From Eledone cirrhosa (taxonomy: Eukaryota), in contig OZ024742.1 of assembly GCA_964016885.1 (NCBI GenBank), positions 46,872,001 to 46,936,000 on the forward strand: a DNA stretch of 64,000 bases, read 5' to 3'. Under the pieces are notes generated by a model that saw only the letters and a program-made list of their open reading frames with translations, was not told the DNA's origin and did no database searches. Of this stretch, positions 20,437 through 50,095 are shown one piece after another. Both the position numbers and the translations under genes were made by a program. Each line of letters begins with the position of its first letter. The first letter of the stretch is position 1.

Positions 20437-20441
<5 letters not shown>
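17814..20441 (-). CDS. PLE reverse transcriptase + GIY-YIG endonuclease (~875 aa; catalytic motif reads YVDN)
   Basis: [64 protein letters not shown]. The first 36 aa of the track ORF are microsatellite. Confidence 0.9.
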
Positions 20442-20515
<74 letters not shown>

Positions 20516-21398
20516 GTACATATATATAAATATACACACAGACACGCACACTTGCGTTGGTTCGAGAGGGAGGGTATGTGTTGGTGATGTTAATGAAGTT
20601 AATGATTGTTGATGTATGGAGTTGTACCTTGTGGTGGCGGTGGTGGAGTTGTGAGCGACAAAAATATACAGGTTCGAATAATACGATGGGTTACTCCTGT
20701 AGGCTGTACAACCACAGCAGACACTGCAGTGCCATCAGCAGCTGACACAAAACTTTCCAGGTACAGATCCATGGTCTTTTGCGACTGACAGATACCAATA
20801 TTAATAACAACAACAACAATAATAATAATGATTTTTTCTGATTTAGGCACTAGGCCAACAATGTTTTGGGAAAGGGAAAGTCAATTAAATCGACATTACT
20901 AGTACTTTATTTTATGGATATATAGATGTCTTGTATATTGGATGGAATAATTTACTGATTATTGATTATTTGATCGGTTAATTAGTTAACAACAATTGAC
21001 ACACTTACGAAAGCTTGAATATTAGCTTGGTAATCATCAATTTAATTGTGGTGCTTATCATGTTTTCTTCTAAGCCTGAAACAACTGTTTGTGTACGATG
21101 CTGAACAGGGTATTGCTAATATTAAGGACGTAATGTACTGTTGTTCTAGCAAATTATATACTGTTCATGTTTTCTCTTAGTTGTACCAATAACGATATTT
21201 ATGTGTACCCCCTGCTTCGGATATTTTTAGCGCCTTTGCATTGAGGGTTATAGTTCGGCAAATTGGTGTACAGAAGAAAGCAGTTTGTACACCTGTATTC
21301 TGTTTGTTATGAATACAATATATATATTAATAAAGAGAGAGTGATATATATATATATGTGTGTGTGTATATATATATATTTAATATAGAAATGGCTTC

Positions 21399-23399: not shown

Positions 23400-23400
<1 letters not shown>
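22740..23400. mobile_element. non-coding repeat with hAT-like terminus, ending at (CTAT)n
   Basis: Starts CAGTGGCGGACTGGCA; degenerate inverse TGTCAGTCCGTC near 23382; homologous to 31165-31480. Confidence 0.45.

Positions 23401-23474
<74 letters not shown>
23401..23474. repeat. (CTAT)n microsatellite 5' of Tx1 copy 1
   Basis: Directly visible. Confidence 0.95.
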
Positions 23475-23479
23475 CTCTT

Positions 23480-26400
23480 TCTGTCTGACGTGTGGAACAT
23501 CGCCGGTAAGCTTTTTTGTTAATTTCTATGCAAAAAACCGAACTAATTGTTTGAAAAAACATAACACTTTGTAGATTAACCCCCAAGTTGAATTGACAGC
23601 TGGGTGGTAATCCCATTTTTCGCCCCTGTAGGGGCGAAAATTTTATTTTAAAAATTTGTTTTAAAATATCAGATGTTACAAACTAAATAACTTGAGCAAC
23701 ACAAGAACGCTGGAGAACGTTAATAGAGAAAAGAGAGAGAAAGAGGCAGATATTAACGTTATATCTGCTTCTGCTACTATGGACGTCGCCATAGATACAA
23801 GTGTCAACAAAGAAAAAATATATTAACACTTGAAAATTTTAAAATGTCTACCGTCGAAGCGGAGAAAAATAACAATAACACACAGGAAAACACAGGAATT
23901 AAACCCATTAACATACATACACATGAAAAAGACATCAACAACTCTACAGATACATCTACACAAAGTTTCACCTCAACAAGGAACTGAGATTTCCAACAAC
24001 GATAACAACAACATCAACAGCAACACCACACAAAAAAAGAAAATGCCTTTCGCTGAAACGGTGAACAAAAAACAAGATTTTATAAATCTTGATATCTCCA
24101 ACGCAAGAGATATGCTCCAGCAAAGGAGAAAATTTGTAACTTTCGAAGAAAGAGGTGGGTTTAGAATTAACTCACCCATTGAAATAAAGGAAGACACAAT
24201 CCGTAGATCAGTCACTTTTAGGACTGTGTCAAATTCGACAAGAAAGCCGACATTTGCTAATCAAGCAGATATAGAAGATACTTTCAAGGAAATTCTAGCA
24301 AATGTCGATTTTCTCCAGCGAGGAAAACAGTACGGAAGTGTTGCCGTACTGTTTAAAAGCCAGGCACTCGCCCCAAAAATCTCTGTGACACCAATGGTGT
24401 CAAAAGCATACACCTTTTTCCCTACACACATGGGGAAAAGGACACAAAAAATAAAAATAAAAAACATGCCTCCAAACATTAACATCTGGTGTATCTTGGC
24501 TGGCTTCGTAGAGCCAGAAACTGATATGATACTCTCAATACGAAAATCTATTAGGCAAAGGTGGGCGGGCACAGATTTGGAGATTCTGTTGAAAATGAAA
24601 CCGGAGAGAATCTCAAAAATACCCGAAAGAGTCGTTATTGATAATAACAACAAAATAAACATTTCGGTAGAAGGACAAACATTTCATTGCTTTCGCTGTG
24701 GTAGCACAGCTCACCTAAAAGCCTCTTGTCCACAAACACACAACAACATCATAAAAAAAACTCTATTACCATCACCAAAACAACCACCACCACCACCACA
24801 AGTACAACGACAGACGAAACGAGCAACCACACCAAAACAAACAGACACTCAACCAACAGCAACAGAAAAAAACAGAGACAACACCCCTGAAGAAAACAGC
24901 CCCACTCCATCCCACTCCATCAAACACTACCACAAACACACATACCGAAACACCACCACCACACAACATACCCTTACCCCACACACCTGACGATTATTCA
25001 TCGACGGATGAAGCTGCTTCTCCTTCTTTAAGTGAAGAAGAGGGAGAACCACGGAAATCTAAAAAGCAAAAAAAGAGACACCACAAACCCCCCCAAAACT
25101 CCAATCACCAACACCAACACACAACCACAGACACAAACAACAACACAAACAACACCACAGTCAAACATCCCCCTATCAGCAAAACCAGCACCAACACCAC
25201 CCCAAACACAAGCACCCACCATAAAAAGAAAACTCCTGGACGAACAACAAACTGAAACAACACAACAAAAACGCAAACAACAATACGCATACATCAACAC
25301 AAACAACAAGAGTTTGATGGAGGTCATCTCCCAAAACTCCAAGGTGGAGACGGAGGGCAAAACTTTTGTCAAGGCAGAATCCTCTCCACACCTTAAACTT
25401 ATAAGGGTTTCTATGGAAACCTATAAAGACCTAAAAAATGAATTTTCACAGGACGTGGGCCACAAACCCATCAACCGCGTCCTGTTAAAATGTTTCCCCA
25501 CCCCACCCAACACCCAAATGGAGATTGAATAACCCGATCTCCAGGAAACGAAAAGGTAAGTGCATATTTCGTCCTTTTTCTCCAACTTTTCTTCACCAAC
25601 ATGGCTAGTTTACGAGTTGGAATCGTGAATGTGCGTGGCCTAGGGATGCTCTGGAAACAGGGCCAACTTTTAAACGACCTTAGGTCACACAGTATGGATG
25701 TGATAGCCATCACCGAGTCCAGGATACACAAAAGGCAGCAACTAACCCCCATCTTCGACGACTTTGAGATCTACACATCTCTCTGTCAGCCAGGAGGTGG
25801 AGGTGGAGTGGCTATCATGTTTCGGAAGAACCTGGATGTCGGAGTACAGCAAGTACACTTGGACCCGGAGGGTAGACTGGTAGTCCTAGACGTGAACAGT
25901 ATCGGAGGTGGAGCCTTCAGACTGGTTGCCGTTTATGCCCCGACCGGGCAATCGCAAGCACGGCCAGACTTATTTAAGCGTCTAGAATCTTTTCTGGGAA
26001 CGGCTCGCTCCTTACTTTTAGTGGGGGACTGGAATGGTATGCTAGATGCACGATGGGACTATGTGGGAGCATGTCCCACTAGAGCGGGGTACAACAGCCT
26101 CAAAACTTTAATCGGCCAATTCTAACTGGCCGATAGGTATCGACTGGATTTCCCGACTGCACCACAGTGGACGTGGGCAAACCGCAGTGGGACATCTAGA
26201 TCGTATTTAGATATGTTCTTCATTAGAGAAAGGGACAAGGAGATGTTAAGCTGTCCACGAATGCACATGGTTGCCTATTCAGATCACAAGTTAGTCGTCT
26301 GCTTAGTCAACCGTGATAGAATACATAGACAGGGTCCCGGATACTGGAAGCTGAACGTGTCGTAAACGGCACCTAAAGCTTAAAGTGAACGGATAAGTAG

Positions 26401-26893
26401 ACTAGTCAAATAACAGTTAACGGGAGCCATCGTCAACAATAGATGGTGGTACTCTCTCAAGAAAGCAATTAGAATAGAATCGATAGGGTATAGCAGAGAG
26501 TTAGCCTTAGAGAAAAACAGAATAGAAAGAGAACTAGTAGCCAAGGTAGAGGAGGCACTTAGAAGTGGCAACGCGGCTAGAGTGTTAGCGTCGAGAACGG
26601 CACTGGACCAGTTCTTCGATGCGAAACACGAAGGCTGCGTGGTCAGAAGCAAAACACGTGCTCTAGAAAACGAAGGAGCGAAAGCTGTCAGCTGGGCTCG
26701 AGTGGCGGAGGCAAAAAGTGGCAACAAGTCCACGATTCGGTCTTTGAAAGACCAAAACAGACGCGTGCTACTTGACCCCAAGCAAATGTGCGCGACCTTT
26801 CAGCGACTGTTTGAGCAGAATGACAGTGAGCCGAACGGGGTAATGTACTTTAGTTCATACCTCGACGGCCTGCCGCGTCTCTCGACGCATTAG
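23480..26893 (+). mobile_element. L1-Tx1 non-LTR retrotransposon copy 1 (3'-truncated, decayed)
   Basis: ORF1 with CCHC knuckle CFRCGSTAHLKASC; ORF2 from ATG 25601 with APE endonuclease motifs NVRGL, GDWN, YLD, SDHK and GYWKLN; multiple stops. Confidence 0.9.
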
Positions 26894-29563: not shown

Positions 29564-31158
29564 AAGTAGCGCTCAAAATAAGAGAACCATAAATTAACTT
29601 TTCATTATCTTTCATATTTAACATTTTTCCTTTGAAAAAATATTTGAAAGAATACTTGTAATATATATATATATCTCTTGTGCTAAAATATTTTCTTAAT
29701 AATAAAGGATATAAACAAGATTTTAATGATATACCTTTAATTAAAAAAGAATACAATGATGAAAATAAGAGAACTCTCTGGTGATGTTTTATATATTAGT
29801 GTAATTACTTGGATTTTTTAGAAATATCTGGCAAGACTTGTCAACAGGGTCATGTTACGAGTATATTCAATTTTTCAACTCTCGTAAGATGTCGATCCAT
29901 TCCAAGGTAAAGGAAGCCCACTGATGTAAAGTCGTTCAGATGAAGAGTTTGGACTCCTTCTCTCTCGGCCATTAGAAGTGAAGTGAGCCATTCTAAAAGT
30001 GTGATAACGAGGATTTTGAAATTGCATAATGAAACCAACTCATTCACGTCTACGAAGAAGGCTAGCCGTCCACGTAAAACAAGTCAACGAGTGGACCTCA
30101 TGATCCAAAGAATCGATATGGGGAACGCTTCGACACTGCATCTGGAATATCTCGTCAAATCAGCGCTAATTTCGGATGAAAAGTGTCTCGGTGTAGTGTC
30201 TCGTCGTCTGGCAGCCATTGGATTGATCAAAGCTCTTATCAGCAATAAAAATAAAATTGCTAGACTTGCCTTCGCTGACAAGCACATTGTGTCAAGTGAG
30301 AGAAACTGGTCCAAAGTTCATTTTAGTGATAATATCAAGTTTAATTTGATTGGTTCAGATGGTAACCAATACGTAAGAATTGAAGCTGGGAAATACTTCT
30401 TTCAAAGTGTCAAAAAGTCTGTAAAATTTGGAGGAGGTAGTGTCATGATTTGGGGAATGTCCCAGCAGCCGCAGTGGGACCTCTCATATGCTTAAATGGT
30501 ACTGTAATGCTAATGTGTACTAGAAACTCCTTCAGCAACATGCCATTCCCTCTTTACGGGCTTCTCCCAATAAACCAGCCATTTTTATGCAAGATAATGT
30601 GCCACACTGCAAAACGAATGAGAGAATTTCTCAAAGATCAGAAAATAGAAGTTTGGAAATGGTCAGCCCGGAGTTCTGATTTGAATCGAATCAAGAACCT
30701 TTGGAAGATCATTGGGGACAAAATCATGGTGAAAAGGCCAGCTACAACCACTGAATTATGGAAGAAACTGGAGGAAGAGTGGGATAAAATCACTCCAAAA
30801 CTGTGCAATATGATGGTCACTTCATGTGGATGCAGATGTGCTGAAGTCATCTAAAGTAAGGGACTCTACACTTCCAGTTAATGCCTGAGAATGCATAAAC
30901 ACTAGTTTGTAGAGTAAATTTCATCTTTAATTGTGCTTTCGTAAAGATTATGCTTCTCTTCTCTTATTTTGATCACTGTATTTTTTCAAAATTAAAGGTA
31001 TTTGATTAATATCTTCTGTATACCTTTGATTATTGAGAAAATATTTTAGCGCATGACATATATGTACTAGAATATTCTTTCAAACTTTAAAGGAAAAATT
31101 TTGTCAAATAAGAAAAATGATGAACTAATTTATCGTTCTCATATTTTGATAGCTACTG
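29564..31158 (+). mobile_element. Tc1-family DNA transposon (IR/DR-type, decayed)
   Basis: TA-(A)AGTAGC.CTCAAAATAAGAGAAC / GTTCTCATATTTTGATAGCTACTG-TA; ~220 bp TIRs with inner direct repeats; transposase WSKVHFSD, VKFGGGSVMIWG, SSDLNRIKNLW. Confidence 0.92.
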
Positions 31159-31164
31159 TACATA

Positions 31165-31480
31165 AATAGTTGTCTCTAGGGAAAAATATGAAAATAAATA
31201 ATATTAAAAGTCGTGTCTGACAAATGATATAATAAACGAAGCCGGTATGGAAGGATATTATGTAGATATGTGGTAGAGGTACGTAACAATTTCGATTTTC
31301 TTCTAGTTACTAAAAGTGATGTTGTCAGATTTCGAGACGTTTTCAAGGAAGCTGGCTTCCAGCTGTAAAGTCAGGCTAAAATGCAGGTGGGAAGGAGATC
31401 ATGTATATGTATATTCATTTATATTTGTATAACACTCACGAGCTGATCTAGGAATCCCTGTGTAGGTATGTCAGTCTCTT
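31165..31480. repeat. second copy of the repeat at 22790-23400, again ending at a CT/(CTAT)n tract
   Basis: Shared blocks GTGTCTGACAAAT..AAACGAAGCC.GTATGGAA and TTTTCTTCTAGTTACTAAAAG..CTGGCTTCCAG.TG.AAAGT.AGGCTAAAAT. Confidence 0.8.
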
Positions 31481-31505
31481 TCTTTCTCTCTTTCTCTCTC
31501 TCTCT

Positions 31506-31621
<116 letters not shown>

Positions 31622-34600
31622 TGGGATGGACACACGCGTGTAACTTGCTGAGTAAGTTTTGCTTAAATTTCTATAGAAATTCTTGACTGTAAACTTTAAT
31701 TTTTGTACCATTTTGTAGAGGGACTGCCAGGTCAAACTTTGATCTGGTCAGTCTCTCAAAATATTCTACGCCTTTAGGCGAAATAGTTACCAAAAGTTTT
31801 TTTGAAAAGTTAACATTTTTTGTAAAATGGCTGAAGCTTCTTCACCAAAATTCGAAGAAGGAAAGGGTAAGATAAGCTTACAGCTACCCCCTGCCACTGT
31901 CACAGTAGCAGAGGTCAAAAACAAAGGTCAGCCAGAGGAAGGATTTTCTCCACCTGCTGACAAACAACTTGACGTTGCCATGCCAACAAACCAAAGAACC
32001 AGCGCCACCAGCAACAACAACAACAACAACAATGCTACGGACGAAAACAACACCAATAACAATAACAACAACAACAAGACCAATAACTGTGATAACAACA
32101 ACAATGATAACAACAACACCGCCAACTACAACAGCAACACAAACAAGGAAAAGTCTCCTTCGCCCAGACGGCAAGGAAAACCCTCGACTATCTGCCAGTA
32201 GATATAACCAAAGCGAAGGAGCTAAACTAAAAGGCCAGAGACTCCTAAACACTGTCATGTTTAGGACAATCTCAAATAAAAGGAAAAAGCCAGCTCAACC
32301 ATCACAGAGTGAGATAGAGCTGGTTTTAAAAGACGTCATGAAAGACATCACATTCATTCAGAAGGATAGACTCTACGGGAGTCTATCCATTCTCATGAAG
32401 GACAGGGACACAGCAGTGAAACTGTCCATCAAACCAATTACATCCACCGCATACATTTTCTACCCTACGTACATGGGTAGGACACAAAAAATAAAAATCC
32501 ACACCATCCTGCTGATTATGGACATATGATGGGTTTTGACAGGTTTCCTGAACCTGGACGTTGACACGCTGGTGTCCATGGGAAATGCATCGGGTGACGC
32601 GTTCAGTGGAACGAGCCTCGAACTTGTAGTTCAAATGAGGCCCGAAAGGATCGCCCAGATCCCTGAACGCGTCATACTGGATGATCAAACTTTCATCAAC
32701 ATTACCGTTGAGGGTAGGCGGCCCTCGGGTTACCTCTGTGGAACCAGAGGTCACCTGAGAGCTGTCTCTCCCCAACTTAATAAGAAAACCCCAATCCTGC
32801 CTACACCACCAACAACTGCACAACCAACACAATCACCACAACTACCACTACAAAAACAACAACCACAGCTCAAACCAAAACAAAACAATGTCCAACCCAT
32901 CCCCCCACTAAAAAAAAAAACAATTTCCAAAACACCCGCACCGCAACAAAACCCGAAAATATACCCCTCTCCTCCACCGCGGAAGATGACCCTAGTTCGT
33001 CGTCAGACGAGGAGGAGCACTTCCACACAATTAAAAGAAAAAAAAGAAAACACACCTCAGACACACAAATGAAAGCAACCCTCCCCAAAATATAACACTG
33101 ACACCAACACAAAGAGCACACAACAACAGCATACAAAAAACACCACACACAAACAAAAACATGCATACACATACATAAACACAAGAAACAAAAAACTGTT
33201 AAACATTGTGTACAACAACAATTTAATAAAAACCCAAGGGCTTAACTTCACCCAGGCAGGGGATTTCCCCCACCTCAAAATGATTAAGGCCCCAGAGGAC
33301 ACTTATAAAACTCTAAAAGACAACTTTAAAGAGGATGTGCCCCCCCCCCCCCCCCCTGCGTCGGGCCCATTAACCGCGTCCTCCTAAAAAACTACCCCAC
33401 CCACTCCCCAAACACCCACACAACTCCAAACACCCCAACCACACAACACACTGATGCCGCTACACTTCCACAAACCACCACCCCACCCAACAACCAATCC
33501 CCCACCCTCATGGAAATTGTGCAGCCCGATACCCGGGACGCAGAGAGGTAAGTGTCTTTTCTCTTCACCACCAACATGGCTATGCTAAGAGTAGGCTGTC
33601 TAAATGCGCGTGGCCTGGGCTCAACTTGGAAGCAAGCAATGCTTCTAAATGACCTCAGGTCACAACGTATAGATGTGATGGTTATTTGCGAGGCTGAGAT
33701 GCACGCATCTCTCTGTCAGCCCGGAGGTGGGGGTGGGGTGGTCGTTCTGCTGCAAAAACATCTGGGTCTCGCAACACAGACGGTATATTTGGACCCGGAG
33801 GGTCGACTAGTGGTTCTGGACCTTGGCAGTGGTGAAGACGGAGCGTTTTGGTTGGTGGCCGCCTACGGACCTTTCGGGTCACCGCGGCCGGACTTCTTCC
33901 ATCGTCTGGAGACTTTTTTAGGGACGTCCCGCTCCTTGCTATTAGTGGGGGACTGGAATGGTATCCTAGATGCACGCTGGGACTACGTAGGGGCCTATCC
34001 CGATAGACAGGGGTGTAGTAGACTCAAAGGGTTAATCGGTCGATTTGACCTGTCCGATAGATATCGACTAGATTTTCCGACTGCGCCAACCTGGACTTAG
34101 GCAAATCTTAGCGGATCATTTAGGTCGTACCTAGATAGGTTCTTAGTTAGAAATAAGGATAAGGACTTTTTAAGTTGTTCAAAAATAAGCATGGTTGGCT
34201 ATTCAGACCACAAGTTAGTGAGCTGCATGGTCAACCTTGACAGAACGCATAGACAGGGAGCCGGTTACTGGAAGCTCAACTTCTCCTTACCGGCAAGTAA
34301 GGCTTACAGGGACCGGATTAGCACTTTAGTTAAGGAGCGGTTGACGGGCGCCATCGTCAACAGCAGGTGGTGGGGATCTCTCAAAAGAGAGATTAGAGTA
34401 GTCTCTATAGAATTTAGTAGGGAGTTAGCCTCAAATAGAAATAGGAAGGAAAGGGAGCTGGTAGATAGTGTAGAAGAGGCAATTAGAAGCGGCGACGTGA
34501 CCAGAGTGCTAGCGTCGAGAACGGCTCTGGGCCAGTTCTTCGACGCGAAACACGAAGGTTGCATCGTCCGAAGCAAAATACGTGCTCTGGGAAATGAGGG

Positions 34601-36795
34601 GACCAAAGCTGTTAGCTGGGCCCGCGTGACAGAAGCCAAAAGAGGGAGCAGATCCACTATCCGGTCTTTGCGAGACCAGGATGGACGGGTGATCCTTGAA
34701 CCTAAGCAGATGTGCGAGGCGTTTCAAAAGCACTTTGCCGGATTGTTCGGAAGGGGCGGGAAGCCGGTTGGGGATGTGGACTTCGCTCCATACCTCGACA
34801 GCCTGCCGCGTCTCTCGGACATGGAGGCGAAGTCCTGCGACGAGCCGATTTCAGCCGCTGAGATAGAGGAGGTGCTGAGCCAATGCGGCAAACGCAAATC
34901 CCCAGGTCTCGATGGTCTTCCATACGAACTGTATCTAGCTATGCCGGACTTGTTCCCCGATCTCCTCGAGGCGGTCTACTGCAACTGGCAACAGAACAGG
35001 AGAATTCCCTGTGCTGTGACCAAGGGCGTAGTCACGCTAGTGAGGAAGGACGAGAACAAGGGGGACGATATAAATAATTTCAGGCCCATAACTCTGCTAA
35101 ATACAGAGTTACAGATTTTGGCCAAGGTGCTAGCATAGAGGTTGGCGCTTGTCGTGGGCAACCTGGTGGGAGATGCGCAGACATGTGCTATTCCGTCCAG
35201 GTCCATCCACGACAACCTCCACCTCATGCGATACATCATAGAGAGGGTTGGGAACGAACCCGGCTTTGGTGGGGCCCTGATGAACTTGGATCAATCTAAG
35301 GCGTTCGATAGGGTCGACCATGGTTACCTGGATCTGGTGCTAGCGGCGGCAGGCTTCGGACCCGTTTTCAGGGGCTGGATCAATGCCATGCACAGCAGCC
35401 GCATCTGCTCTAGGGTCAAGGTGAATGGCTACCTCTCGGAGCCGTTCGAAATCGCGCGGTCCATCCGACAAGGCTGCTTTCTCTCCTCCCTTCTGTATGT
35501 AATGACTCTAGAGCCACTGCTGCGGAAGTTGGAGTTGTTGCAGGGCATCCCGTTGGAACCGGGATTGCGGAAAGCGGTATCGGCCTACGCCGACGACGTA
35601 ACAGTAATGGTGTCGACGGCCTCGGAAATCGGGGCGATCGGCACTTTACTGGAGGAGTACGAAAGGTTTACAGGGGCTAAGCTGAACCGGGACAAGTCGA
35701 TCGGTCTGCAACTCGGCACGTGGAGGAGCAGATCGATGCCCTCCGATGACGTCGTCGGGCGCTGGACGGAGGGCCCGGTGAACTTGCTCGGGGTCTGGTT
35801 CGGACCAGACCTCCAGGTGGAGCAGAACAGGGGTGAGGTAACAAACAGGGTGTTTGCACAGACCCAGAAGTGGGCCGAGTGCAAACTGTCCCTGAAAGGT
35901 CGGGCGGAGGTGACGAACACTTATATAGCGTCCGTCATCTACTACCGCCTGACCGTTGTGCCTTGCCCAAGGGAAACGCTCGCCAAAATGGAGCGCGCAC
36001 TCTTCCAATCCTTTGGAAGAAGCGGGCTCCTATGGTCCATCTGCTGTCAACACCCTTCGAAAGGAGGGCTAGGGATGCTGTGGCTAATGATACGTAAACA
36101 CGCATTAAGGCTACGAAACCTCCAGGTATTCCGCACCGGTCAACCGGTGTGGGCCCCGTTTGTGAGGCGAGTCTTTCCCAGACTCGTCTCACTCACCGAG
36201 CTGCAATCCTGGGTCAAGCAAAGACCGAGAAAACTGGGCGCCTGGCACACCGAGTCTATTGTAACGATCAAGCCACCCCCCTTTTCAAAAACGAAGGAGA
36301 GGCGGTGTTTCTGTGCGTAATAGCCATGGCGAAAGAGGTTGTATGGTGGACGCGTCTGAAAGGACTGAGGTCAGACACCTTTCTCTCTGGCCAATAACTG
36401 GTCCGTTTCTTCCGATATCATTTCGGAAGAAGGATCAGGATGGAGAGAGAGGTGCTGCACCCCAGCCGTTTTTATGAAAGATGGGTGAAAGTGGCGAGAA
36501 TGGCCCGTATGAATGGGCATTCACTCTACATCAGACTATAGGTGAGGAAGATGAAAGACCAAGCGAGCACCCCCTCTCTGTGCTCCTGAGGAGAAGGGTT
36601 GCACACTTTTTTTCGGGGGTGTGTGCGACCCCCCAAGGCGCCTCCCCCCTATTGAGGATTTTGTTTTATTTTATTTTATTTTTATACTTTTATATCTTGT
36701 TATTGCCTCCTCCATATTGAGGACGCCTTTGCATGTAAACTCCCCCTTTGTACTTGTCTCACTTTTGATGCTCTGGTGGCAAATAAAAAGAAAGT
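31622..36795 (+). mobile_element. L1-Tx1 copy 2 (both ends present, frameshifted, internal deletions)
   Basis: ORF1 from 31827; ORF2 ATG 33576 with APE, KSPGLDG, FRPITLLN, LDQSKAFDRV, RQGC.LS, AYADD; AATAAA then (CTAT)n. Confidence 0.93.
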
Positions 36796-37022
36796 TATCT
36801 ATCTATCTATCTATCTATCTTGATAGAGTAAGACACGCTTCACATCGGCTCCGCTATTCCATCGGGATTTACCTTTACTATTGTAAGTACCGGATAAATT
36901 TTTCAGTGCAACACATTTGGAACACTAACCCCTGTTATTTAGGGAAACATTTTTGCATTTACCCCCTTTTTAGGGGGTAAAATAAATATCTAATTTTGCC
37001 GAAAAATTTCGTTCTTGGCAGC

Positions 37023-38810
37023 ATGGCGGAAAAGATGGCAGACATGTCTGCCATTAGCTCTGCCACGCCCCCCAAGTCTGAAGAACAAAAAATAATTACA
37101 ACAAAATTAGACAACGAAACAAACAAAGAAAATGAAAAAACAAATGTTAAGGAAAATGAGCAAACGGAAAACAAACAAACAGAAAATAATACAAATAACA
37201 ACAGGGCAACTTTCGCCCAGAAAACAAAACAATCCATTACATACACACCTATTGACCTAACGGCCGCCAGAGAAAAACTGGCCGAAGCAAAGAAACACAT
37301 TGTTTTGGGGGAAAACGGAATGTTTTCCATTAACTCCCCCCCAGAATTCAAGAAAGCGAGAACAGAGAACACAGTTCTCTTCAGAACAATCCTAAACCAA
37401 ACAAGAAAGCCAGCACAGCCCAGCCAAATGGAGATAGAGTTGGTACTAAAAGACTATATGAAGAATATTCTCTTCATACGAAAGGACCGACTCTATGGCA
37501 GCATTTCGGTCCTAACAAAAGACAAGGAAACGGCGGAGAAGCTTTCCATAAGCCCACTCTCATCGACAACATACAGCTTCTATCCCTCCTACATGGGTAG
37601 AAGAACACAGAGAGTAAAAATACAAACAATGCTGCCCACAGTGGACTTCTGGTGGGCTATTGCTGGCTTCATAGACATGGGCGAGGACACAGTGCTGTCA
37701 ATGGGGAAGGCATCCGGAGATGCGTTCCTGGGAATGGGCCTCGACCTACTAGTCCAAATGAGGCCCGAAAGAATAGCACAAATCCCGGATCGCATCTGGC
37801 TGGATGAGCTCACCCCAATAGATATAATTGTAGAGGGGAGAAGACCAGCATGCTATTTATGCACGGAAAGGGGACACATTAAGGCTAACTGCCCGAAACG
37901 TATCCCCCAAAAAGGACTATTGCCCACACCCATCACAAACAGTACACCAACACCACCCACCTCCAAAAATACACTAATACCACACACAGCAAACAAAATA
38001 CAAACACCACCAAGCACAACACAAACATCACCACCACCAGCACCAACACAAACACCACCACCACCATTACCAACCACAAGCACGACACAAACAGCACCAC
38101 CACCACCACAAAACGCATTCCAAACAAATAATAAAAAAAACAGCAACAAATCTACCCCTCCCGCAAAAAAACAACAACCAGACACGACGTCCCTCCCACC
38201 TAGCGCTGAAGAGTTTCCCCCAACTTCTGAAGAAGAAGGAGGAGAAGCCTTCAGACAAGTTAAAAGAAAAAAAAGAAAGCACACACCCAGCACACCACAA
38301 ATAACCCACACACAAACACCAACTCCAATAAAAAACACCCCACCCTCAACAAACAAAAATAAATCTGCGCCTCCCCTCTCCGAAACATTGACAGCATCAC
38401 AAAAAAAGACATTGCAATACACATATATAAATAAAGAAAACAAAAAACTGTTTAAATTAATAAACAATAGCCCTTTGGTGCAAACCGAAGGGCCAAACTT
38501 TATCTCAACAGAGAACTTCACCCATTTAAAAATGATAAAGGTCCCTCTGGACCTTTATCGTTCCTTAAAAGAACAATTTAGACAGGACGTGAGCCCCCCC
38601 TGTTTAAAACCGTTAAATCGCGTCCTCTTGAAAGATTTCCCCATAACCTCCCCTCTACCTGACACAACTCCAAACACCCCAACCCCACCACACTTGGGCA
38701 CCCCCACACCACCACAAAACATCCCTCCACCCAACACACCTGACGCCATAGAAATTACACAGCCCGGAGAGGTAGGTGCTTTTCTTTCTTCACTTTCAAC
38801 ACCAAAATAG
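37023..38810 (+). CDS. Tx1 ORF1 protein (gag-like, CCHC zinc knuckle, Pro/Thr-rich linker), ~595 aa
   Basis: CYLCTERGHIKANC; homologous to ORF1 of copies 1 and 2; uninterrupted frame. Confidence 0.8.
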   Translation: MAEKMADMSAISSATPPKSEEQKIITTKLDNETNKENEKTNVKENEQTENKQTENNTNNNRATFAQKTKQSITYTPIDLTAAREKLAEAKKHIVLGENGMFSINSPPEFKKARTENTVLFRTILNQTRKPAQPSQMEIELVLKDYMKNILFIRKDRLYGSISVLTKDKETAEKLSISPLSSTTYSFYPSYMGRRTQRVKIQTMLPTVDFWWAIAGFIDMGEDTVLSMGKASGDAFLGMGLDLLVQMRPERIAQIPDRIWLDELTPIDIIVEGRRPACYLCTERGHIKANCPKRIPQKGLLPTPITNSTPTPPTSKNTLIPHTANKIQTPPSTTQTSPPPAPTQTPPPPLPTTSTTQTAPPPPQNAFQTNNKKNSNKSTPPAKKQQPDTTSLPPSAEEFPPTSEEEGGEAFRQVKRKKRKHTPSTPQITHTQTPTPIKNTPPSTNKNKSAPPLSETLTASQKKTLQYTYINKENKKLFKLINNSPLVQTEGPNFISTENFTHLKMIKVPLDLYRSLKEQFRQDVSPPCLKPLNRVLLKDFPITSPLPDTTPNTPTPPHLGTPTPPQNIPPPNTPDAIEITQPGEVGAFLSSLSTPK

Positions 38811-41800
38811 ATCAATTGAGAGTTGGCTGTTTGAACGCGCGTGGCCTGGGCTCAGCTTGAAAGCAAGCAAAGCTACTAAGTGACCTCAGGTCACGAAGTA
38901 TAGATGTGATGGTTGTTTGCGAGAGTCGGATCAGCAGCGTGCGACAGCTGGCTCCCGCCTTCGATGACTTTGAGATGCACGCATCTCTCTGTCAACCCGG
39001 AGGCGGGGGGGGGGGGAGTTGCTGTACTGTTGGATAAACGTCTGGCTCTCGACGTACAGATTGTTCACTCGGACCCGGGGGGTCGATTACTGGTGCTGGA
39101 CGTCGGAGGCGGTGAAGGCGAGTCTTTCAGACTGGTCGGTCTTTATGCCCCCTTCGGGGCTGAAAGAGCCGACTTCTTCCAGCGACTGGAGACTTTTCTA
39201 GGAACGTCGCGTTCCCTGCTTTTAGAGGGGGACTGGAATGGAATCCTGGATGCGCGTTGGGACTATGCAGGGGCATGTCCCGATAGAGGGGAGTGTAGCA
39301 GCCTCAAGGGGTTACTCGATCGATTCGACCTGGTCGATAGATTTCGACTAGATTGTCCAACTGCGCCAACCTGGACCTGGGCAAACCGCAGTGGACAATC
39401 TAGATCGTACCTAGATAGGTTTTTGGTTAGGAGTAAGGATACTTAGTTGTCCAGAATTGATCATGGTTGGCTATTCAGATCACAAATTAGTGACCTGCGT
39501 GGTCAACCTTGATAGAACGCATAGACAGGGTCCCGGTTACTGGAAGATGAACTTGTCCTTGCCGGCAAAGAAAAAGATTATAGGAACCGGATTAGTAGCT
39601 TAGTTAAGATGCGGTTGACGGGAGCGATCGTCAACAGTAGGTGGTGGGTATCTCTAAAGAGAGAGATTAGAGTAAGTTCGATAGGTTACAGGACCTAGCG
39701 GCGAATAGAAATAGGAAGGAAAGGGAGTTAACAGATAAACTAGAAGAGGCGATTAGGAGCGGAGACGTAGCCAGAGTGTTAGCGGCGAGAACGGCGTTGA
39801 GCCAGTTCTTTGACGCGAAGCACGAAGGCTGCGTTGTCCGAAGTAAAATACGTGCTTTAGGAAACGAGGGGACCAAAGCTGTTAACTGGGCCCGCGTGAC
39901 AGAAGCCAAGAGTGGGATTAAATCCACCATTCGGTCTTTGCGAGACCAGGATGGACGGGTGATCCTTGAACCTGAGCGGATGTGCGAGGCCTTTCAAAGG
40001 CACTTTGCTCGACTGTTCGGAGGGGGTGGGGGGGCCGGACGGGGATGTGGACGTCGGTCCATACCTCGACGGTCTACCGCGTCTTTCGAGCGGCGAAGCG
40101 GAGTGCTGCGAAAGGCCAATCACAGCCACTGAAATCGGGGAAGCGCTCAGCCAATGCAGCAGACGCAAATCTCCGGGTCTCGATGGTCTACCATACGAAC
40201 TTTATTTAGCTATGCCGGTCTTGTTCTCCGAAATCCTCGAGGCTGTCTATTGCAACTGGCAACAGAACGGGAGAATTCCCTGTTCTGTGACCAAGGGCGT
40301 GGTCACGCTAGTGAGGAAGGACGAGAGCAAGGGGGACGACTTAAGTAACTTTAGGCCCATAACTCTGCTGAATGCAGAGTTTCAGATTTTGGCCAATGTG
40401 TTGGCGAAGAGGTTGGCGCTTGTGGTGGGTGGTTTGGTGGGAGACGCGCAGACATGCGCTATCCCGTCCAGGTCCATTCACGACAACCTCCACCTCATGC
40501 GATACATCATAGAGAGGGTTGGCAACGAACCCGGCTTTGGTGGGGCCCTGATCAACTTGGATCAATCTAAGGCGTTCGATAGGGTCGACCATGGTTACCT
40601 GGATGCGGTGCTAGCGGCGGCGGGCTTCGGACCCGTTTGCAAGGGCTGGATTTCTGCCATGCACAGTGGCAACATCTACTCTAGGATTAAAGTAAACGGC
40701 TACCTCTCGGAGCCGTTTCAAATCACCCGGTCCATCAGACAGGGGTGACCCTCTCCTCCCTTCTGTACGTATTGACTCTCGAGCCACTGCTGCGGAAGTT
40801 GGAGTTGCTGCGGGGCATACCCCTGGAACCGGGATTGCACAAAGCGGTCTCGGCCTATGCCGACGACGTAACAGTAATGGTGGCGGACGCCTCGGAAATC
40901 GGGGCGATCGCCACCCTACTGGAGGAATACGAAAGGCTGACGGGGGCTAGGCTGAACCGGGACAAGTCAGTCGGTTTGCAACTCGGAACGTGGAGGGGCA
41001 AACCGATGCCGTTAGACGGTGTCGTCGGGCGGTGGACGGAGGGCCCGGTGAAGCTGCTCGGGGTCTGGTTCGGACGGACCTCCAGGTGGAGAAGAATTGG
41101 GGCGAGGTGACGAGCAGGGTGTTTGCGCTGACCCAGAAGTGGGCCAAGTGCAAACTATCACTGAAAGGTCGGGCGGAGGTGACGAACGCTTACATAGCGT
41201 CCGTCATCTGCTACCGCCTGACCGTCGTGCCTTGCCCCAAGGAAAAGATCACCATCATGGAACGCATGCTCTTCCAGTTCCTCTGGAAGAAGCGGCCTCC
41301 CATGGTGAGGAGATCCATCTGCTGCCAGCACCCTTCGAAAGGAGGGCTGGGTATGCCGTGGCTGTTGATGCGTAGGCACGCAATGAGGCTACGGCATCTA
41401 CAGGTATTCCTCACCGGTCAGCCGGTGTGGGCCCCGTTTCTGAGGCGAGCCTTCCCACAGCTCGTCTCGCTCACCGAGCTGCAATCCTGGGTGAAGCAAA
41501 GACCGAGAAAACTGGGCAACTGGCACACCGAGTGTGCCCAGGCACTCACGGCTATCTGGCAAGCGGACCCGACTGTCAGTGGAGAATCCACCTCGACATT
41601 CTATAGAGGGCTGGTGGCTAGCAGGGGCGACGACACCCTTGGAGAGTCGCTAGGCATGGAGGAGGACGAACTGGCCAGCCTGTTCGGTAGAACTTTCGGC
41701 CCGGGACCCATGGACAACTTCCAGAGGTCCCTAGCCTGGCAGTGTTACCGGGGGGCTCTGCCCGTTCGAGAAAAGCTCTACAGACACGGGCGCCCGGGCA

Positions 41801-42237
41801 GGGATCCAGCGAAAAAGATCTGTCCCAGATGCGTGCGCGACGAGGAAACCGTTGCGCATGCACTGGTACACTGCCCGGGCGTTGCCGATCTGTGGGGCTA
41901 CGTCGAACGACTGCTGTCGCGTGTGGCGCCGATTCGATTAACCGCCGAGTCTGTGGTGAACATCAAGCCGCCGCCTCCCTTCAGAAAGGAAGCAGAGGCG
42001 GTCTTTCTGTGCGTAATAGCCATGATGAAAGAGGTTGTGTGGTGGACGCGCCTGAAAGGTCTGAGGTCGGGTGACTTTCTCTCCGGCCATCACCTGGTTT
42101 ACTTCTTCCGATACCACTTCGGAAGAAGGATCAGGATGGAGAGAGAAGTGCTTGGCCCCAGACAGTTTTATGAAAGGTGGGTGAAAGAAGCGAGAATGGC
42201 TCGTGTAAATGAGCCTTCTCTCTACATTGTTCTGTAG
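38808..42237 (+). pseudogene. Tx1 ORF2 (APE endonuclease, RT, Zn finger), disrupted
   Basis: Start mutated to ATA; several stops and frameshifts; motifs GDWN, SYLDRF, AYADD. Confidence 0.88.
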
Positions 42238-42466
42238 GTGAAGAAGTGAAGAGGAAAGGGGGAGCGCCTCCTCTCTGGGCTTCCCCCGCGAAAAGGGTTG
42301 CACACTTTTCGGGGGTATGTGCAATCCCGAACACGCCCCTCCCTTTTGAGGACTTTTTATTATTATATTATTATTGTTATTCCTTTTTCTTTACTCGATT
42401 TATGTAAACTCCCCCACTGTGTATTTGTCCCCTTCTTTTGTGCCCTCGTGGCAAATAAATAGAAAT

Positions 42467-42467
42467 G

Positions 42468-42530
<63 letters not shown>
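42467..42530. repeat. (CTAT)n microsatellite 3' of Tx1 copy 3 (shorter tract at 36796-36819 separates copies 2 and 3)
   Basis: Directly visible. Confidence 0.95.
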
Positions 42531-43439: not shown

Positions 43440-43448
<9 letters not shown>

Positions 43449-46142
43449 AGATCAAAAGATGGTTAAAGGAGTTCCATATATTTTATTATGCGCATTTCAA
43501 AAACAAACATCATCAAGCAATAATATTTGTGTTTTCATCAGATAAAACAGGAGAACATGATATGAAGGCTAAAAAAAACACTTGTTGATAGTGCAGTTTT
43601 AAATCAACATATGAAAAGTGGTTTTAGATTGATGTGTGATATTGGGAAAAATATTTTATTTAGAGAGGGGGAGGGGGAAGATGAAAAGGGAAGGAGATGA
43701 GAGGGAGAGATGGGTGATAGAGAGAAAGAGATAGTTTTTATAACTGAGAGGAGATATAATTTTTACATAGAGGGGTTGAAAACCGTTGGAAGATACTGTA
43801 TAAATTAAAAATTTTGAAAATTAACGAAGGGTGGATATGTGCGAGGAAAAAATATTTTATTTAGGGAGGGGGGGGGAAAGGATGAACAAAAGGGGGGAGG
43901 AGATGAGAGTGAAGGTGGAGAGGGAAAGATGGGTGATAGAGAGAAAGAGATAGTTTTTATAACTGAGAAAAAGATATATTGTTTTAATATAGAGAGGTTG
44001 GGAACCGTTGGAAGATAATGTATAAATTAAAGGAATTTGAAAATTAACGAAGGGAAATTATGTATGAAGATGGAGAGAAAAAAATAATAATTGTGGGTGA
44101 ATATTCTAACGTCAAAAGAAGAAATGTATGTATTGTGGCAATTTCAAAATTAGCGAAGAGAAAAGTTGTTAAGGTTTGTGTGTAGAAGGATTTGAGAAAA
44201 TTAATGTGAAGTTAAAGTTTGTATATTGAATTGATATGTATTAATAATGAGTTCGTTGATGGGGAGAAAAAAAAAAAAAAAAAAAATAAATAAATAAATA
44301 AATAATGATAAATTAAGGATGAAATTGAGATTAAAAAGATTTATGATAGAGAGAAAAAATAATAATGATTGCGGATGAATATTCAAAATGTCAAAAACAA
44401 ATTTTATTATTTTACGAGAAGATAGAATGAGGGTAATGAGTAAACGAGTATTATAGAGTGTATAATGCCCTTTAAAGTAAGGTAGATGGGTATATTTTAA
44501 AGAGGTGTATGTATATGTGCCTTTGAGAAAAGATTCTAAATTGATAAAGAATTGAATATTAACTGTATACTTTGTGAAAAGTTCTATGGAATTTATGCAG
44601 GCAGATAGAAAACAAATCTGAGCGTCTATTTATTATAGATTCTAGGTTAGAGATAATGTTAAATTTTTCATTTAGGCAGAGATTACAGATTTTAGATAGA
44701 GAGCTGTTCAAGTATGAGGATGCAGAAGAAATCTTTTTCCAAAAGATGTTATATTTAATGTTTTTGTCTTTTAAGGACCATATGAGTTCTGAGAGAGCAG
44801 TGTTAGTTCTTTTAAGTTTGTATTTGAAAGATGAATGATGATTATAGAGACGAGCTTTAAAAGAGGTGGAAGTGGAGCCAAAATAGGTGAAGGAATTGGT
44901 GCTAGTTATAATTTTACATTCATAAATTAAGTTTTTATCGAGGCAATGGTTGTTGAGAGGACATTTATTTTTAATGCGGCAGTTGCAATTAGAGAGATTA
45001 TTAATGAGTGATCTAGTGTTATCTATAGAAGGAATTGGATTGGAGAAGTTGTTTGCGATAGGAATAATAGGAATAATAGTTTCTTGATTTAGAGTTGGAT
45101 TATGAACATTTAGCGAAGTTGTGTTTGACGTTGTATTTGGGTTTACAGAAGTTAGCCTAGGGTTTACAATGACGTCGGGAGTACTATTACTGTTATTATG
45201 AAATTCAATATTGGAAGGAAGAGATTTAGTATTTAATATTTTGTTGTTGTGTTTAGAGATGATGTTGGAAATATTGGAGGATGTAGAATACGAAAATTTG
45301 ATGGTGTGTTTGTTAAATATTTTACTATAGATATGTGAGGGAGGGAAGCATTTATTTAAGGCACTAAAAAATAATTTAGAAATATTGTTATTAATACAGA
45401 TGGAGAAAGGAGCATTATACCAGATTATGTTTTTGTATCTAGGTCTTTTATTAAAATTATTGGAATGGTCATGATTAATTATTCTACTGTAAGTTTTCCT
45501 AGAATTTGTTTCTTTATTATATTTGATTTTATCTGGATAGCCGGCTTTAGAAAGTGCGTTATTATAGTAATTGGCGTTAGCATCAAAGATGTTTTTATTA
45601 GAAGATATGTTAGATATTCTATTTCCAATATTATTAACTATAGCATTCTTGATATTGGTAGGATGGTTAGATTTAAAGTTAACATAATTAAGATTCTCAT
45701 TGTTTTTATGGTAAGGGTAATATAGGCCAGTGTCAAGATTAAGAGATACATCCAAGAAATTAGCTAGTTTGATACTATTATCAAATTCAATTTTTAGGTT
45801 ATGTTGGTTAAAGAGATTACGTATATTGTTCTTAATAATATTAAGTTTAACTATATTGCAATTTAGGATAGTAAAGAGTCCATCGTCACGATAAATTCCA
45901 CCGCGAAGTTGAGGAATTTTCCGACTCAAAGAGTTCAAAATGAAGATACCAATTAAATCAGTCAATTGGGGTGAATCGGATGCTCCCATTGTGATGTCGA
46001 AGTTGTTAGAGGTATCGGCTCTGGTCCAATATTCGTTGTTGAACTCTAGGATGGTTTTACGTGCGGTGAGGATGATGTGAAGTTCATCTGTGGTGATGTC
46101 AGAATATTGCTTTATTGTACTACAATAAAACTCACCTCCTAC

Positions 46143-46143
<1 letters not shown>
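43440..46143 (-). mobile_element. Naiad-type PLE copy A (5'-truncated)
   Basis: Reverse-complement near-copy of copy B; 38-bp inverted tail piece at 46106-46143 equals 50061-50098. Confidence 0.92.
44559..46107 (-). pseudogene. PLE RT (partial) + GIY-YIG, open frame but 5'-truncated
   Basis: FDITMGASD, YRDDGL, NFLDV.L.L, SNHP, WYNAPFS, CNCRIKNKCPL, IYEC..TYFGST, CNLCLNEK, ICLH. Confidence 0.9.
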
Positions 46144-46213
<70 letters not shown>

Positions 46214-46221
<8 letters not shown>

Positions 46222-47019
46222 AGATCAAAAGATGGTTAAAGGAGTTCCATATATTTTATTATGCGCATTTCAAAAACAAACATCATTATGCAATAATATT
46301 TGTGTTTTCATCAGATAAAACAGGAGAACATGATATGAAGGCTAAAAAACACTTGTGGATAGTGCAGTTTTAAATCAACATATGAAAAGTGGTTTTAGAT
46401 TGATGTGTGATATTGGGAAAAATATTTTATTTAGAGAGGGGGGGGGAGGATGAAAAGGGAAGGAGATGAGAGGAAGAGATGGGTGATAGAGAGAAAGAGA
46501 TAGTTTTTATAACTGAGAGGAGATATATTTTTTACATAGAGAGGTTGAAAACCGTTGGAAGATACTGTATAAATTAAAAATTTTGAAAATGAACGAAGGG
46601 AGGATATGTGCGAGGAAAAAATATTTTATTTAGGGAGGGGGGGGGGATGAAAAAAAGGGGGAGGAGATGAGAGTGAAGGTGGAGAGGGAGAGATGGGTGA
46701 TAGAGAGAAAGAGATAGTTTTTATAACTGAGAAAAAGATATATTGTTTTAATATAGAGAGGTTGGGTACCGTTGGAAGATAATGTATAAATTAAAGGAAT
46801 TTGAAAATTAACGAAGGGAAATTATGTATGAAGATAGAGAGAAAAAAATAATAATTGTGGGTGAATATTCTAACGTCAAAAAAAGAAATGTATGTATTGT
46901 GGCAATTTCAAAATTAACGAAGAGAAAAATTATTAAGGTTTGTGTGTAGAAGGATTTGAGAAAAATAATGTGAAGTTAAAGTTTGTATATTGGTTGAATT
47001 GATAATATATGCGAATAAA
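46214..47019 (-). repeat. inverted pLTR/3'UTR copy preceding copy B
   Basis: Reverse complement of ~49205-50010. Confidence 0.9.
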
Positions 47020-50000: not shown

Positions 50001-50095
50001 TCTTATATTATGCATACTCAAGTCCTACAAATTGTAGAGTGCTTCTTATCCGATATCTGCATTGCTTTATTGTACTACAATAAAACTCACCTCCT

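Follow-up and report, generated by a model that had tools for sequence, protein, structure and literature searches.

A 5' splice site motif, AG/GTARGT, lies at the end of ORF1 in 102 of 108 distinct junctions of a group of two-ORF LINEs, a frequency far beyond chance in a sample whose loci were picked by ORF1 or endonuclease similarity rather than at random. Three copies of these elements lie in the window, a stretch of 64,000 nucleotides from Eledone cirrhosa (contig OZ024742.1, positions 46,872,001 to 46,936,000). The donor is conserved across reading frames and families, and the sequences around the start and the end of ORF2 are complementary and co-vary between lineages. The best explanation, to which we assign a probability of about 0.4, is that ORF2 may be skipped by splicing from this donor to a flexible acceptor, gated by a predicted duplex (zipper) between the ORF2 start and the ORF2 end. 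The likeliest splice product from the conserved donor would be an ORF1-only mRNA.

Identity of the elements and their copies in the window

The elements have the features of the L1 superfamily: two ORFs, the second of which encodes an APE endonuclease, a reverse transcriptase (RT) and a C-terminal zinc-binding domain. The best PDB match of ORF2 is L1 ORF2p (E 8e-57). In an intact relative, L158 (ORF1 of 636 aa, ORF2 of 1139 aa), PF03372, PF00078 and PF13966 all score above cut-off, and a domain search assigned no Pfam family to ORF1; ORF1 of window copy 3 has a weak match to zf-CCHC (E 0.005; 17.3 bits, below the Pfam cut-off of 20.8). With two separate ORFs and an APE endonuclease rather than the gag-pol polyprotein of an LTR element, they are not members of Ty1/Copia. 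Insertion is sequence-specific: all three window copies begin after (TATC)n, lineages A and B follow (ATT)n, and lineage C ends in (ATT)n. These elements are putative members of the Tx1 group, the label given in the original prediction. Database searches returned no named Tx1 reference, and the Atlas gave generic RT names only. According to the accessible portions of two reports, Kibi, Koshi and crocodilian Tx1 are microsatellite-targeting Tx1-group LINEs (PMC4494074), and L1-Tx1 families exist in Octopus vulgaris (PMC13282606). Two ORFs, an endonuclease-RT-zinc ORF2 and microsatellite insertion are common to those LINEs and the elements described here, whose targets are (TATC)n and (ATT)n; neither an ORF1-stop donor nor an ORF2 zipper is mentioned in those portions (PMC4494074, PMC13282606).

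Direct read-out of the three window copies found the donor and acceptor motifs where the original prediction had placed them (Table 1). Lineage 3 is represented in genome G000 by 660 exact 3' ends and 569 exact ORF1 starts.

Table 1. Positions of element features in the window (a slash marks the candidate exon-intron or intron-exon boundary)
Feature	Positions	Strand	Remarks
Copy 1 (lineage 1)	23487..26885	+	5'UTR, ORF1, first 1.3 kb of ORF2; no 3' end in window
Donor-like GTAAGC, copy 1 5'UTR	23506..23511	+	
ORF1-end donor AG/GTAAGT, copy 1	25554..25561	+	Phase 2; AGG TAA in relatives; AAAAG/GTAAGT at 25556
Copy 2 (lineage 2)	31622..36795	+	Full length but decayed; ~417-nt deletion in ORF2 near 36255, between two CCGAGT repeats
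Donor-like GTAAGT, copy 2 5'UTR	31652..31657	+	
ORF1-end donor AG/GTAAGT, copy 2	33546..33553	+	Phase 2; contains ORF1 TAA; GAGAG/GTAAGT at 33548
Predicted zipper 5' strand, copy 2	33544..33602	+	Donor, pyrimidine spacer, ORF2 ATG at 33576, first codons; weak (-40.7 kcal/mol)
Predicted zipper 3' strand, copy 2	36513..36578	+	ORF2 stop and candidate acceptor TAG at 36539-36541; CTATAG/GTGAG at 36541
AATAAA, copy 2	36782..36787	+	
Copy 3 (lineage 3, young)	36821..42467	+	
Donor-like GTAAGT, copy 3 5'UTR	36883..36888	+	
ORF1, copy 3	37023..38810	+	595 aa; runs through donor
ORF1-end donor AG/GTAGGT, copy 3	38770..38777	+	Phase 0; GAGAG/GTAGGT at 38772
Predicted zipper 5' strand, copy 3	38768..38833	+	-64.9 kcal/mol; best partner in element
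ORF2, copy 3	38807..42237	+	Endonuclease, RT, zinc-binding end; broken here; starts with ATA, not ATG, overlapping ORF1 TAG
Predicted zipper 3' strand, copy 3	42206..42275	+	ORF2 stop and candidate acceptor TAG 42235-42237 (CTGTAG/GTGAA at 42237), purine tract, anti-donor 42262-42275
AATAAA, copy 3	42454..42459	+	
(TATC)n target tract	31477..31621	n/a	
Other (TATC)n tracts	23400-23486; 36796-36820; 42468-42530		

Donor, candidate acceptor and predicted duplex

The sole invariant block at the junction in a 12-row alignment is AGGTA.GT, at positions -2 to +6. Among copies with a long open ORF1, the donor occurs in phases 0, 1 and 2 (phases were taken from such copies or from protein homology, and automatic calls in the decayed L192, L194, L196, L201, L210, L216 and L222 were set aside). 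A distant family from another animal, with 41% ORF2 identity, has the donor just after the ORF1 stop in 35/35 cases, and two of three full-length ORF1 relatives, read as protein only, have a terminal G-K footprint consistent with a phase-1 donor. Judged from this conservation, the donor is a nucleotide signal under selection, independent of reading frame. The ORF1-end donor is absent from five more distant relatives (28-38% ORF2 identity) and from L286; metagenome contigs contributed four distant loci, of which the two checked have no donor motif, no related loci were found in viral contigs, an ORF1 word search gave no matches, and a search with P0005 recovered that entry alone. A donor-like site in L241/L242 was dropped because it lies on the antisense strand inside ORF2 of lineage C, and two RT matches at 30% identity, considered as distant Tx1, were judged by eye to be single-ORF elements of other LINE types.

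The extra TAA upstream of the copy 1 donor is a private mutation, as had been supposed; relatives read GAA CAA. The end of ORF1 in copy 3 had been attributed to a 14-nt deletion, but the shorter end is common to its whole lineage, in which 597 codons remain open in phase 0 through the donor and the stop lies 39 nt beyond. Excision of ORF2 as one precise intron that rebuilds an Arg-stop, the central claim of the original prediction, would hold for the lineage of copy 2 and, by homology, for lineage D. Elsewhere it would not: other short ends would result in lineages A, B and 3 (EVKK-stop in lineage 3), and tails of 28 to 40+ residues in lineages 1 and 2b/2c. In only five of eight lineages would the spliced frame reach a stop within four codons.

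The acceptor at the ORF2 end is much less exceptional than the donor. ORF2 ends in TAG in 151/172 cases, in TAA in 19/172 and otherwise in 2/172. Lineage C, which is abundant, has an intact ORF2 and keeps the donor, terminates ORF2 with TAA, so that the proposed doubling of the stop codon as acceptor fails there, and 5/45 counted ORF2 ends of the distant family (overlapping loci, not de-duplicated) read TTCG instead of TTAG. The conservation of both sites that had been anticipated thus extends to the donor, whereas a stop-codon AG is not present in every donor-keeping lineage. By a home-made score, the stop AG ranks 1-11 among 246-285 AGs in 10/11 rows, and first in lineage 3. Pairing with the ORF2 start region accounts at least as well as a splice-site role for the pyrimidine tract, for the GT/G that follows the stop and for the purine tract, and most of the acceptor-like letters appear to belong to the co-varying predicted duplex.

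In the predicted duplex one strand comprises the donor, the spacer and the start of ORF2, and it is paired with the end of ORF2 and the 3'UTR. The ORF2 stop region is the best partner in 12/15 copies, and the zipper is not the best window in copy 2, L194 and L172. Spacer lengths co-vary (Spearman 0.93, 12 related rows), a copy's own partner beats swapped ones (8 and 27 of 20000 permutations), and whole-length folds contain the duplex in both lineages folded. The donor is retained also where part of it stays unpaired in the zipper, positions +2 and +3 pairing in just 6/12 rows.

Proposed gated skipping of ORF2 and its alternatives

The 5' splice site at the ORF1 stop and the predicted duplex likely form a gate together. 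U1 snRNP would bind the donor while the RNA is still being transcribed; once synthesis has reached the 3' end, 3.4 kb further on, the duplex would close over the spacer, the ORF2 start codon and the ORF2 stop, and in several lineages over the donor as well. For transcripts committed before closure, the acceptor would be an AG that coincides with the ORF2 end or lies shortly beyond it. It need not be the stop codon: it could be TAG in most lineages here, AAG 7 nt further in lineage C and a 3'UTR AG in the distant family. Most full-length RNA would stay unspliced and a minority would be spliced to ORF1-only mRNA, with ORF1p little changed because the donor sits in or directly after the ORF1 stop; spliced RNA would make no ORF2p and would rarely be copied back. 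Donor conservation, zipper co-variation, the rank of the stop AG, the early stop in five of eight lineages, locus L184 and the precedents of EVD and DHBV count in favour of gated skipping. Against it count the zero spliced retrocopies in any lineage tested, the TAA of lineage C, the TTCG variants, the long tails in lineages 1 and 2b/2c, the donor-like sites in the 5'UTR and after the ORF2 stop, which fit no ORF2-skipping role, and the three copies whose zipper is not the best window.

Spliced retrocopies were sought with exact-match patterns, by which old decayed spliced copies could be missed: none was found against 660 unspliced ends in lineage 3, against 2759 and 1427 in further lineages tested, or in lineages A and C (no totals counted). 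Joins of the ORF1 end to the 3'UTR numbered 0 against 720, and 5'UTR-donor spliced copies 0 against 569. ORF1-only non-autonomous copies, known elsewhere as HAL1, had been suggested as a by-product of splicing; they were sought in five lineages and none was found, and exact-match patterns detected no SpIRE-like or HAL1-like genomic copies with a splice junction. Four sequencing runs of unknown kind gave no joint of ORF1 end to 3'UTR among the 15 of 138 and 15 of 33 joints listed, which is uninformative either way. In L184 an acceptor-like satellite unit follows one ORF1 end, with the junction precisely at the donor; joining of DNA through a 2-nt microhomology would account for this arrangement equally well. 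L182, L183, L280-L285, L333 and L334, considered as spliced copies, proved to be small indels, point changes or unrelated matches. A splice product of the 5'UTR donor could move in cis.

A close rival, with a substantial though minority share of the probability, is that U1 binds without splicing: the donor would be a docking site that guards the long internal-promoter transcript from early termination or cleavage, on completion of the RNA the zipper would cover this site or move it, and the "acceptor" would be stop codon plus zipper letters. This would accommodate the second donor-like site that lineages 1, 2, 2c, 2d, 3 and A carry close to their 5' end, without a shared acceptor; the third donor-like site of the distant family, just after the ORF2 stop and too close (~33-45 nt) to the next AG; L286, which has a zipper and a 3'UTR donor without an ORF1-end donor; the loss of the stop AG in lineage C; and the lack of spliced copies of any kind in the searches above. 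Termination by Restrictor is blocked by 5' splice sites (PMC12211998), and early termination in EVD is suppressed by U1, which guards full-length RNA there (PMC5580714), as far as the accessible portions of these papers describe. The 2.1 kb upstream of the donor contain 0-7 AATAAA per copy (at least two in 10/15 copies), whereas ORF2 contains only 0-1, and there is therefore little downstream to guard. Moreover, the same EVD site does both jobs (PMC5580714, accessible portion), and the stop AG is among the better acceptors, with an in-frame stop right after it in five of eight lineages.

That the zipper is the real device, serving translation or stability, and the donor a side feature, is unlikely. 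Such a duplex could hide the ORF2 start until the ribosome ending ORF1 opens it and, by folding the 3' end beside the ORF1 stop, protect the bicistronic RNA from nonsense-mediated decay, which is suppressed by foldback in the accessible part of one report (PMC2689704). The zipper extends to more distant elements than does the ORF1-end donor (L286, -60.8 kcal/mol, 0/200 shuffles), CTGT upstream of the stop is the partner of the ORF2 start codon in 12/12 rows, and lineage 3 lacks an ATG in 42/42 junctions. However, an invariant U1 complement in three frames would be left unexplained, the partner letters vary and often mispair, and these functions are compatible with gated skipping, not exclusive of it.

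Chance and shared ancestry, by which a TAA stop would be flanked by inherited letters, form a very improbable explanation overall. All lineages in G000 descend from one ancestor, and the donor is missing from the five distant relatives and L286, but the motif persists through changes of frame, between unrelated flanks and at 41% ORF2 identity; this reading is largely refuted for the donor and fair for the acceptor. Least probable is fusion of ORF1 to ORF2 by a short intron that runs from the donor to an AG close to where ORF2 starts. Although the donor is followed by a pyrimidine tract, and AGs are present among the early codons of ORF2 and, in lineages A and 3, directly upstream of its start, the spacer is just 27-47 nt (11 nt in the distant family), the donor phase varies between lineages, and the ORF1 stop of the distant family precedes the donor, making fusion impossible there.

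Precedents and significance

Drosophila copia reportedly offers a parallel case of structural-only splicing, with a 2-kb RNA. Gated skipping of ORF2 has its nearest parallel in Arabidopsis EVD (Ty1/Copia), in which, according to the accessible text, shGAG splicing gives a structural-protein-only mRNA (PMC5580714). EVD/Copia and the present elements have in common that the structural ORF ends in a conserved U1-type donor, which is better kept than the acceptor; for the present elements the structural-only mRNA is predicted. Both EVD and Copia are LTR elements whose single ORF encodes a polyprotein. EVD combines a short intron with early termination (PMC5580714); in the present elements the entire 3.4-kb ORF2 would be the intron, with the usual 3' end retained, and splicing, demonstrated in EVD, is here predicted from sequence. 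In the pregenome of DHBV, complementary sequences near the donor and the acceptor base-pair with each other and protect RNA for reverse transcription from excess splicing (Loeb 2002, as related in the accessible part of PMC3356268). Complementary, co-varying strands are likewise predicted at the donor and acceptor here; unlike in that virus, the duplex, which is only predicted, would also hold the ORF2 start and stop codons. Human L1 SpIREs make up about 2% of full-length L1s and lack 5'UTR or ORF1 sequence that splicing has removed; as far as their report is accessible, they resemble the present elements in having splice sites in a LINE RNA, including a 5'UTR donor (PMC5860796); here, however, there are zero spliced copies and the donor of interest is at the ORF1 end.

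No L1/Tx1 report of such a design was found in the literature searched, in which most subscription articles and Repbase notes were not represented. ORF1p is required by LINEs in large excess over ORF2p, a demand for which the known answer is inefficient re-initiation at ORF2. If true, the ORF1-stop donor and long-range ORF2 clamp would be a second answer to the ORF1p:ORF2p ratio, of a kind so far shown for Copia elements and a hepadnavirus. Even without splicing, the predicted ORF2 start-to-stop duplex and the stop-codon U1 sites would be LINE signals unrecorded in the literature searched. We advance only tentatively the broader proposition that a LINE group across distant animals may treat its whole reverse-transcriptase gene as an optional, zipper-gated spliceosomal intron, setting the ORF1p:ORF2p ratio by splicing.

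The donor at the end of ORF1

The five sequence motifs named in the original prediction are all present, and the donor at the ORF1 end is real at the sequence level. Among 108 distinct junctions between ORF1 and ORF2, from lineages sampled across the genome, 102 carry AG|GTARGT (the other six have four single-base changes and two deletions), and AGGTA.GT is the sole invariant block at the junction in a 12-row alignment. ORF1 meets this donor in three frames: phase 2 in lineages 1, 2, 2c and C (Arg-stop; also in lineage D, by homology only), phase 1 in lineages A and B (Gly-Lys-stop), and phase 0 with read-through in lineage 3. The stop codon therefore does not bring the motif along as a side effect.

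In a distant family (L289-L321 and L331, host-animal arrays within a bacterial MAG record; ORF2 identity 41-44%), the ORF1 stop is followed at once by AAG|GTAAGT in 35 of 35 distinct contexts, the letters beyond being variable. The ORF1-end donor is absent from L286, a second family in the same record (40% identity), and from five relatives at 28-38% identity. Two of three full-length ORF1 relatives (25-28% identity) end in EGKS and QGK, fitting a phase-1 donor; the third ends in LGKKWKQN, which does not fit.

Lineages 1, 2, 2c, 2d, 3 and A also carry a donor-like GTAAG(T) or GTGAGT at 25-70 nt from the 5' end; no such site is apparent in the B copy inspected. A donor-like site also precedes ORF1 in L289 of the distant family. 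Copies spliced at the 5'-end donor numbered 0 versus 569 ORF1 starts in lineage 3, and none was found in lineage 2; about 2% of human L1 copies are reported to be spliced in such a manner (PMC5860796). In lineage 3, ATG is missing from the ORF2 start at 42 of 42 junctions, and an ATA in the -1 frame shares bases with the ORF1 TAG. Non-AUG re-initiation or frameshifting is likely. AUG-free initiation is known for L1 ORF2.

The LINE family and its surroundings

Each of the three two-ORF LINE copies in the window, representing lineages 1, 2 and 3, is directly preceded by a (TATC)n tract; microsatellite targeting makes membership in Tx1 plausible (comparison literature on Tx1-group and L1-Tx1 LINEs includes PMC4494074 and PMC13282606). 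An intact relative encodes an ORF1 of 636 aa and an ORF2 of 1139 aa with endonuclease, RT and zinc-binding domains, to which L1 ORF2p is nearest among solved structures. Named ORF1 relatives are from Argonauta and three Octopus species, which points to an octopod as the likely host. The family is large: an ORF2-end motif has 14,307 matches and an ORF2-start motif 2,546. Its ORF2 tree, rooted at the midpoint only to draw it, is ((A,(B,C)),(1,(D,(2d,3,2c,2/2b)))). Lineages A, B and C insert at (ATT)n, not (TATC)n, and some lineage-A copies stand head-to-tail. The young lineage 3 has 569 exact ORF1 starts versus 660 exact 3' ends, a full-length share unusually high for a LINE. In copy 2, a stretch of ~417 nt flanked by two CCGAGT repeats is missing from ORF2, which is a DNA deletion and not a splice.

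Coordinates of features in the window and at other loci (G000, the 3.0-Gb genome under study; the window is G000:C3:46872001-46936000)
Feature	Location	Strand	Remark
5'UTR donor-like GTAAG(T)	window 23506, 31652, 36883		5'UTRs otherwise dissimilar
ORF2 start, lineage 3	window 38804-38813		
ORF2 deletion, copy 2	window 36250-36255		
RT ORFs with GIY-YIG-like ends	window 17814-20690	-	Penelope-like by eye
RT ORFs with GIY-YIG-like ends	window 57889-58677 (43441-50011, an inverted pair, also holds such ORFs)	+	Penelope-like by eye
Inverted pair of RT ORFs	window 43441-46108 and 47353-50011		96% identity
Tc1/mariner-like transposase, decayed	window 29940-30890		by eye from sequence
Lineage-A array	G000:C1:423385400-423415083		period 5840 bp, copies 99% alike
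ORF1-satellite join (L184)	G000:C5:21848337-21870000		
Apparent 3'UTR intron	L286:4500-4643		~144 nt, by eye

The ORF2 stop as candidate acceptor and the predicted zipper

The acceptor is less well supported than the donor. TAG stands at 151 of 172 ORF2 ends (TAA 19, other 2). By a crude self-made acceptor score, 10 of 11 rows place the stop AG at rank 1-11 among their 246-285 AGs, the copy-2 lineage places it 28th, and it is third of 99 shared AG columns. Against it stands lineage C, which is abundant, with uninterrupted ORF2 alignments and a perfect donor, and has TAA at the ORF2 end in every copy printed, the next AG being an AAG 7 nt further. The distant family, in which a small hairpin is predicted with the ORF2 TAG as its loop, also disagrees: 5 of 45 counted ends (from overlapping loci) have TTCG and continue to a stop inside another donor 13-15 nt downstream. 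In the L315-L319 variant the ORF2 stop is shifted into the 3'UTR donor (Arg-stop), a design as at the ORF1 end, and proteins P0144 and P0197 end likewise. The 3'UTR of L286 holds an apparent canonical intron (CAG|GTAAGT, then a long run of pyrimidines and TAG|G), still present in the genomic copy.

Joining donor to stop was proposed to rebuild the Arg-stop, and is predicted to do so in lineages 2 and D. The predicted ends are GW-stop in A, V-stop in B and VKK-stop in 3; ORF1 would be extended by ~28 residues in lineage 1 and, in 2b/2c, by 35-40 or more, and lineage C has no AG at the stop. A short ORF1 end results in five of eight lineages (2b/2c counted once). A stop codon serving as fixed acceptor and rebuilding Arg-stop, as first proposed, is unlikely.

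Most acceptor-like letters have a second explanation, because a predicted long-range RNA duplex, the zipper, pairs the start codon, spacer and early codons of ORF2 with its stop region: the start codon faces the CTGT ahead of the stop, the pyrimidine spacer a purine tract, and early codons the "polypyrimidine tract". In 12 of 15 copies the 5' strand, taken from the donor through 27 nt beyond the start codon, pairs best with the ORF2 stop (exceptions: window copy 2, L194 and L172); its duplex with the stop region has predicted energies of -39 to -65 kcal/mol versus element means of -26 to -35. Nine of 12 rows outdid at least 299 of 300 shuffles; the remaining three belong to the lineage-2 group. 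Own partners outdid swapped ones (8 of 20000 permutations with 12 rows, 27 of 20000 with 7 lineages; non-coding strands only), and donor-to-ATG length follows the length from the stop to the anti-donor, the 3'UTR strand facing the donor (Spearman 0.93; 12 rows, not independent). Whole-length folds keep 44 zipper pairs in lineage 3 and 26 in lineage C. The 3'UTR is predicted to leave hardly any of the donor uncovered in lineages 1, B, C and 3; in the lineage-2 group and A, donor positions +2 to +4 are mostly unpaired in the prediction, yet unchanged. With duplex windows set only after inspecting the sequences, a start-to-end duplex is predicted more weakly in four copies of the distant family (0-8 of 200 shuffles) and strongly in L286 (0 of 200), which lacks an ORF1-end donor. 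The zipper as a whole is a prediction.

Search for spliced copies and possible mechanisms

Exact-match patterns for spliced copies accepted any neighbour except the unspliced one. At the acceptor there were 0 spliced versus 660 unspliced copies in lineage 3, and none versus 2759 in lineage 2, where one match is a 3-nt deletion. At the donor there was none versus 1427 in lineage 2, where one match is a 2-nt insertion, and two matches versus 720 in lineage 1. Lineage A gave 0 matches and lineage C five, all unspliced (no total counted in either). The proposed genome search for junctions thus yielded no ORF1-to-3'UTR spliced copy in lineages 1, 2, 3, A and C, which removes the suggested ORF1-only non-autonomous copies. 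In one lineage-1 match, L184, an ORF1 fragment breaks off exactly at the donor and runs into >21 kb of a 21-nt satellite, in register directly after the unit's pyrimidine-rich TAG; this single case is suggestive of a splice-like product but may equally be a microhomology join. Since an ORF1-only RNA needs copying in trans, which L1 is reported to disfavour (PMC5860796), the lack of spliced copies is moderate evidence.

The leading reading, with a probability of roughly 0.4, is that the zipper gates the skipping of ORF2 and that the acceptor is flexible. U1 would occupy the donor early; formation of the 3' end would then allow the duplex to close, so that most RNA stays whole, and splicing would turn a minority into an ORF1-only mRNA. 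A donor in or directly after the ORF1 stop fits ORF2 skipping, but the spacer would also be the earliest non-coding position open to such a signal. Nearly as likely, U1 may bind the donor without splicing: further donors stand near the 5' end and behind ORF2, lineage C has TAA, and spliced copies are missing; 5' splice sites are reported to block Restrictor termination (PMC12211998). The zipper may also act in translation or against NMD, which foldback is reported to suppress (PMC2689704), and such a role can hold beside either ORF2 skipping or U1 binding.

For ORF2 skipping, a duplex keeping most RNA whole is reported in duck hepatitis B virus (cited in PMC3356268), and EVD makes a spliced mRNA of the structural ORF only (PMC5580714), the counterpart here being a proposal. 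The literature search found no report of this design for L1/Tx1. Drosophila copia and HAL1 are further systems for comparison. At the level of sequence the variant is real, while its working by splicing is a proposal.
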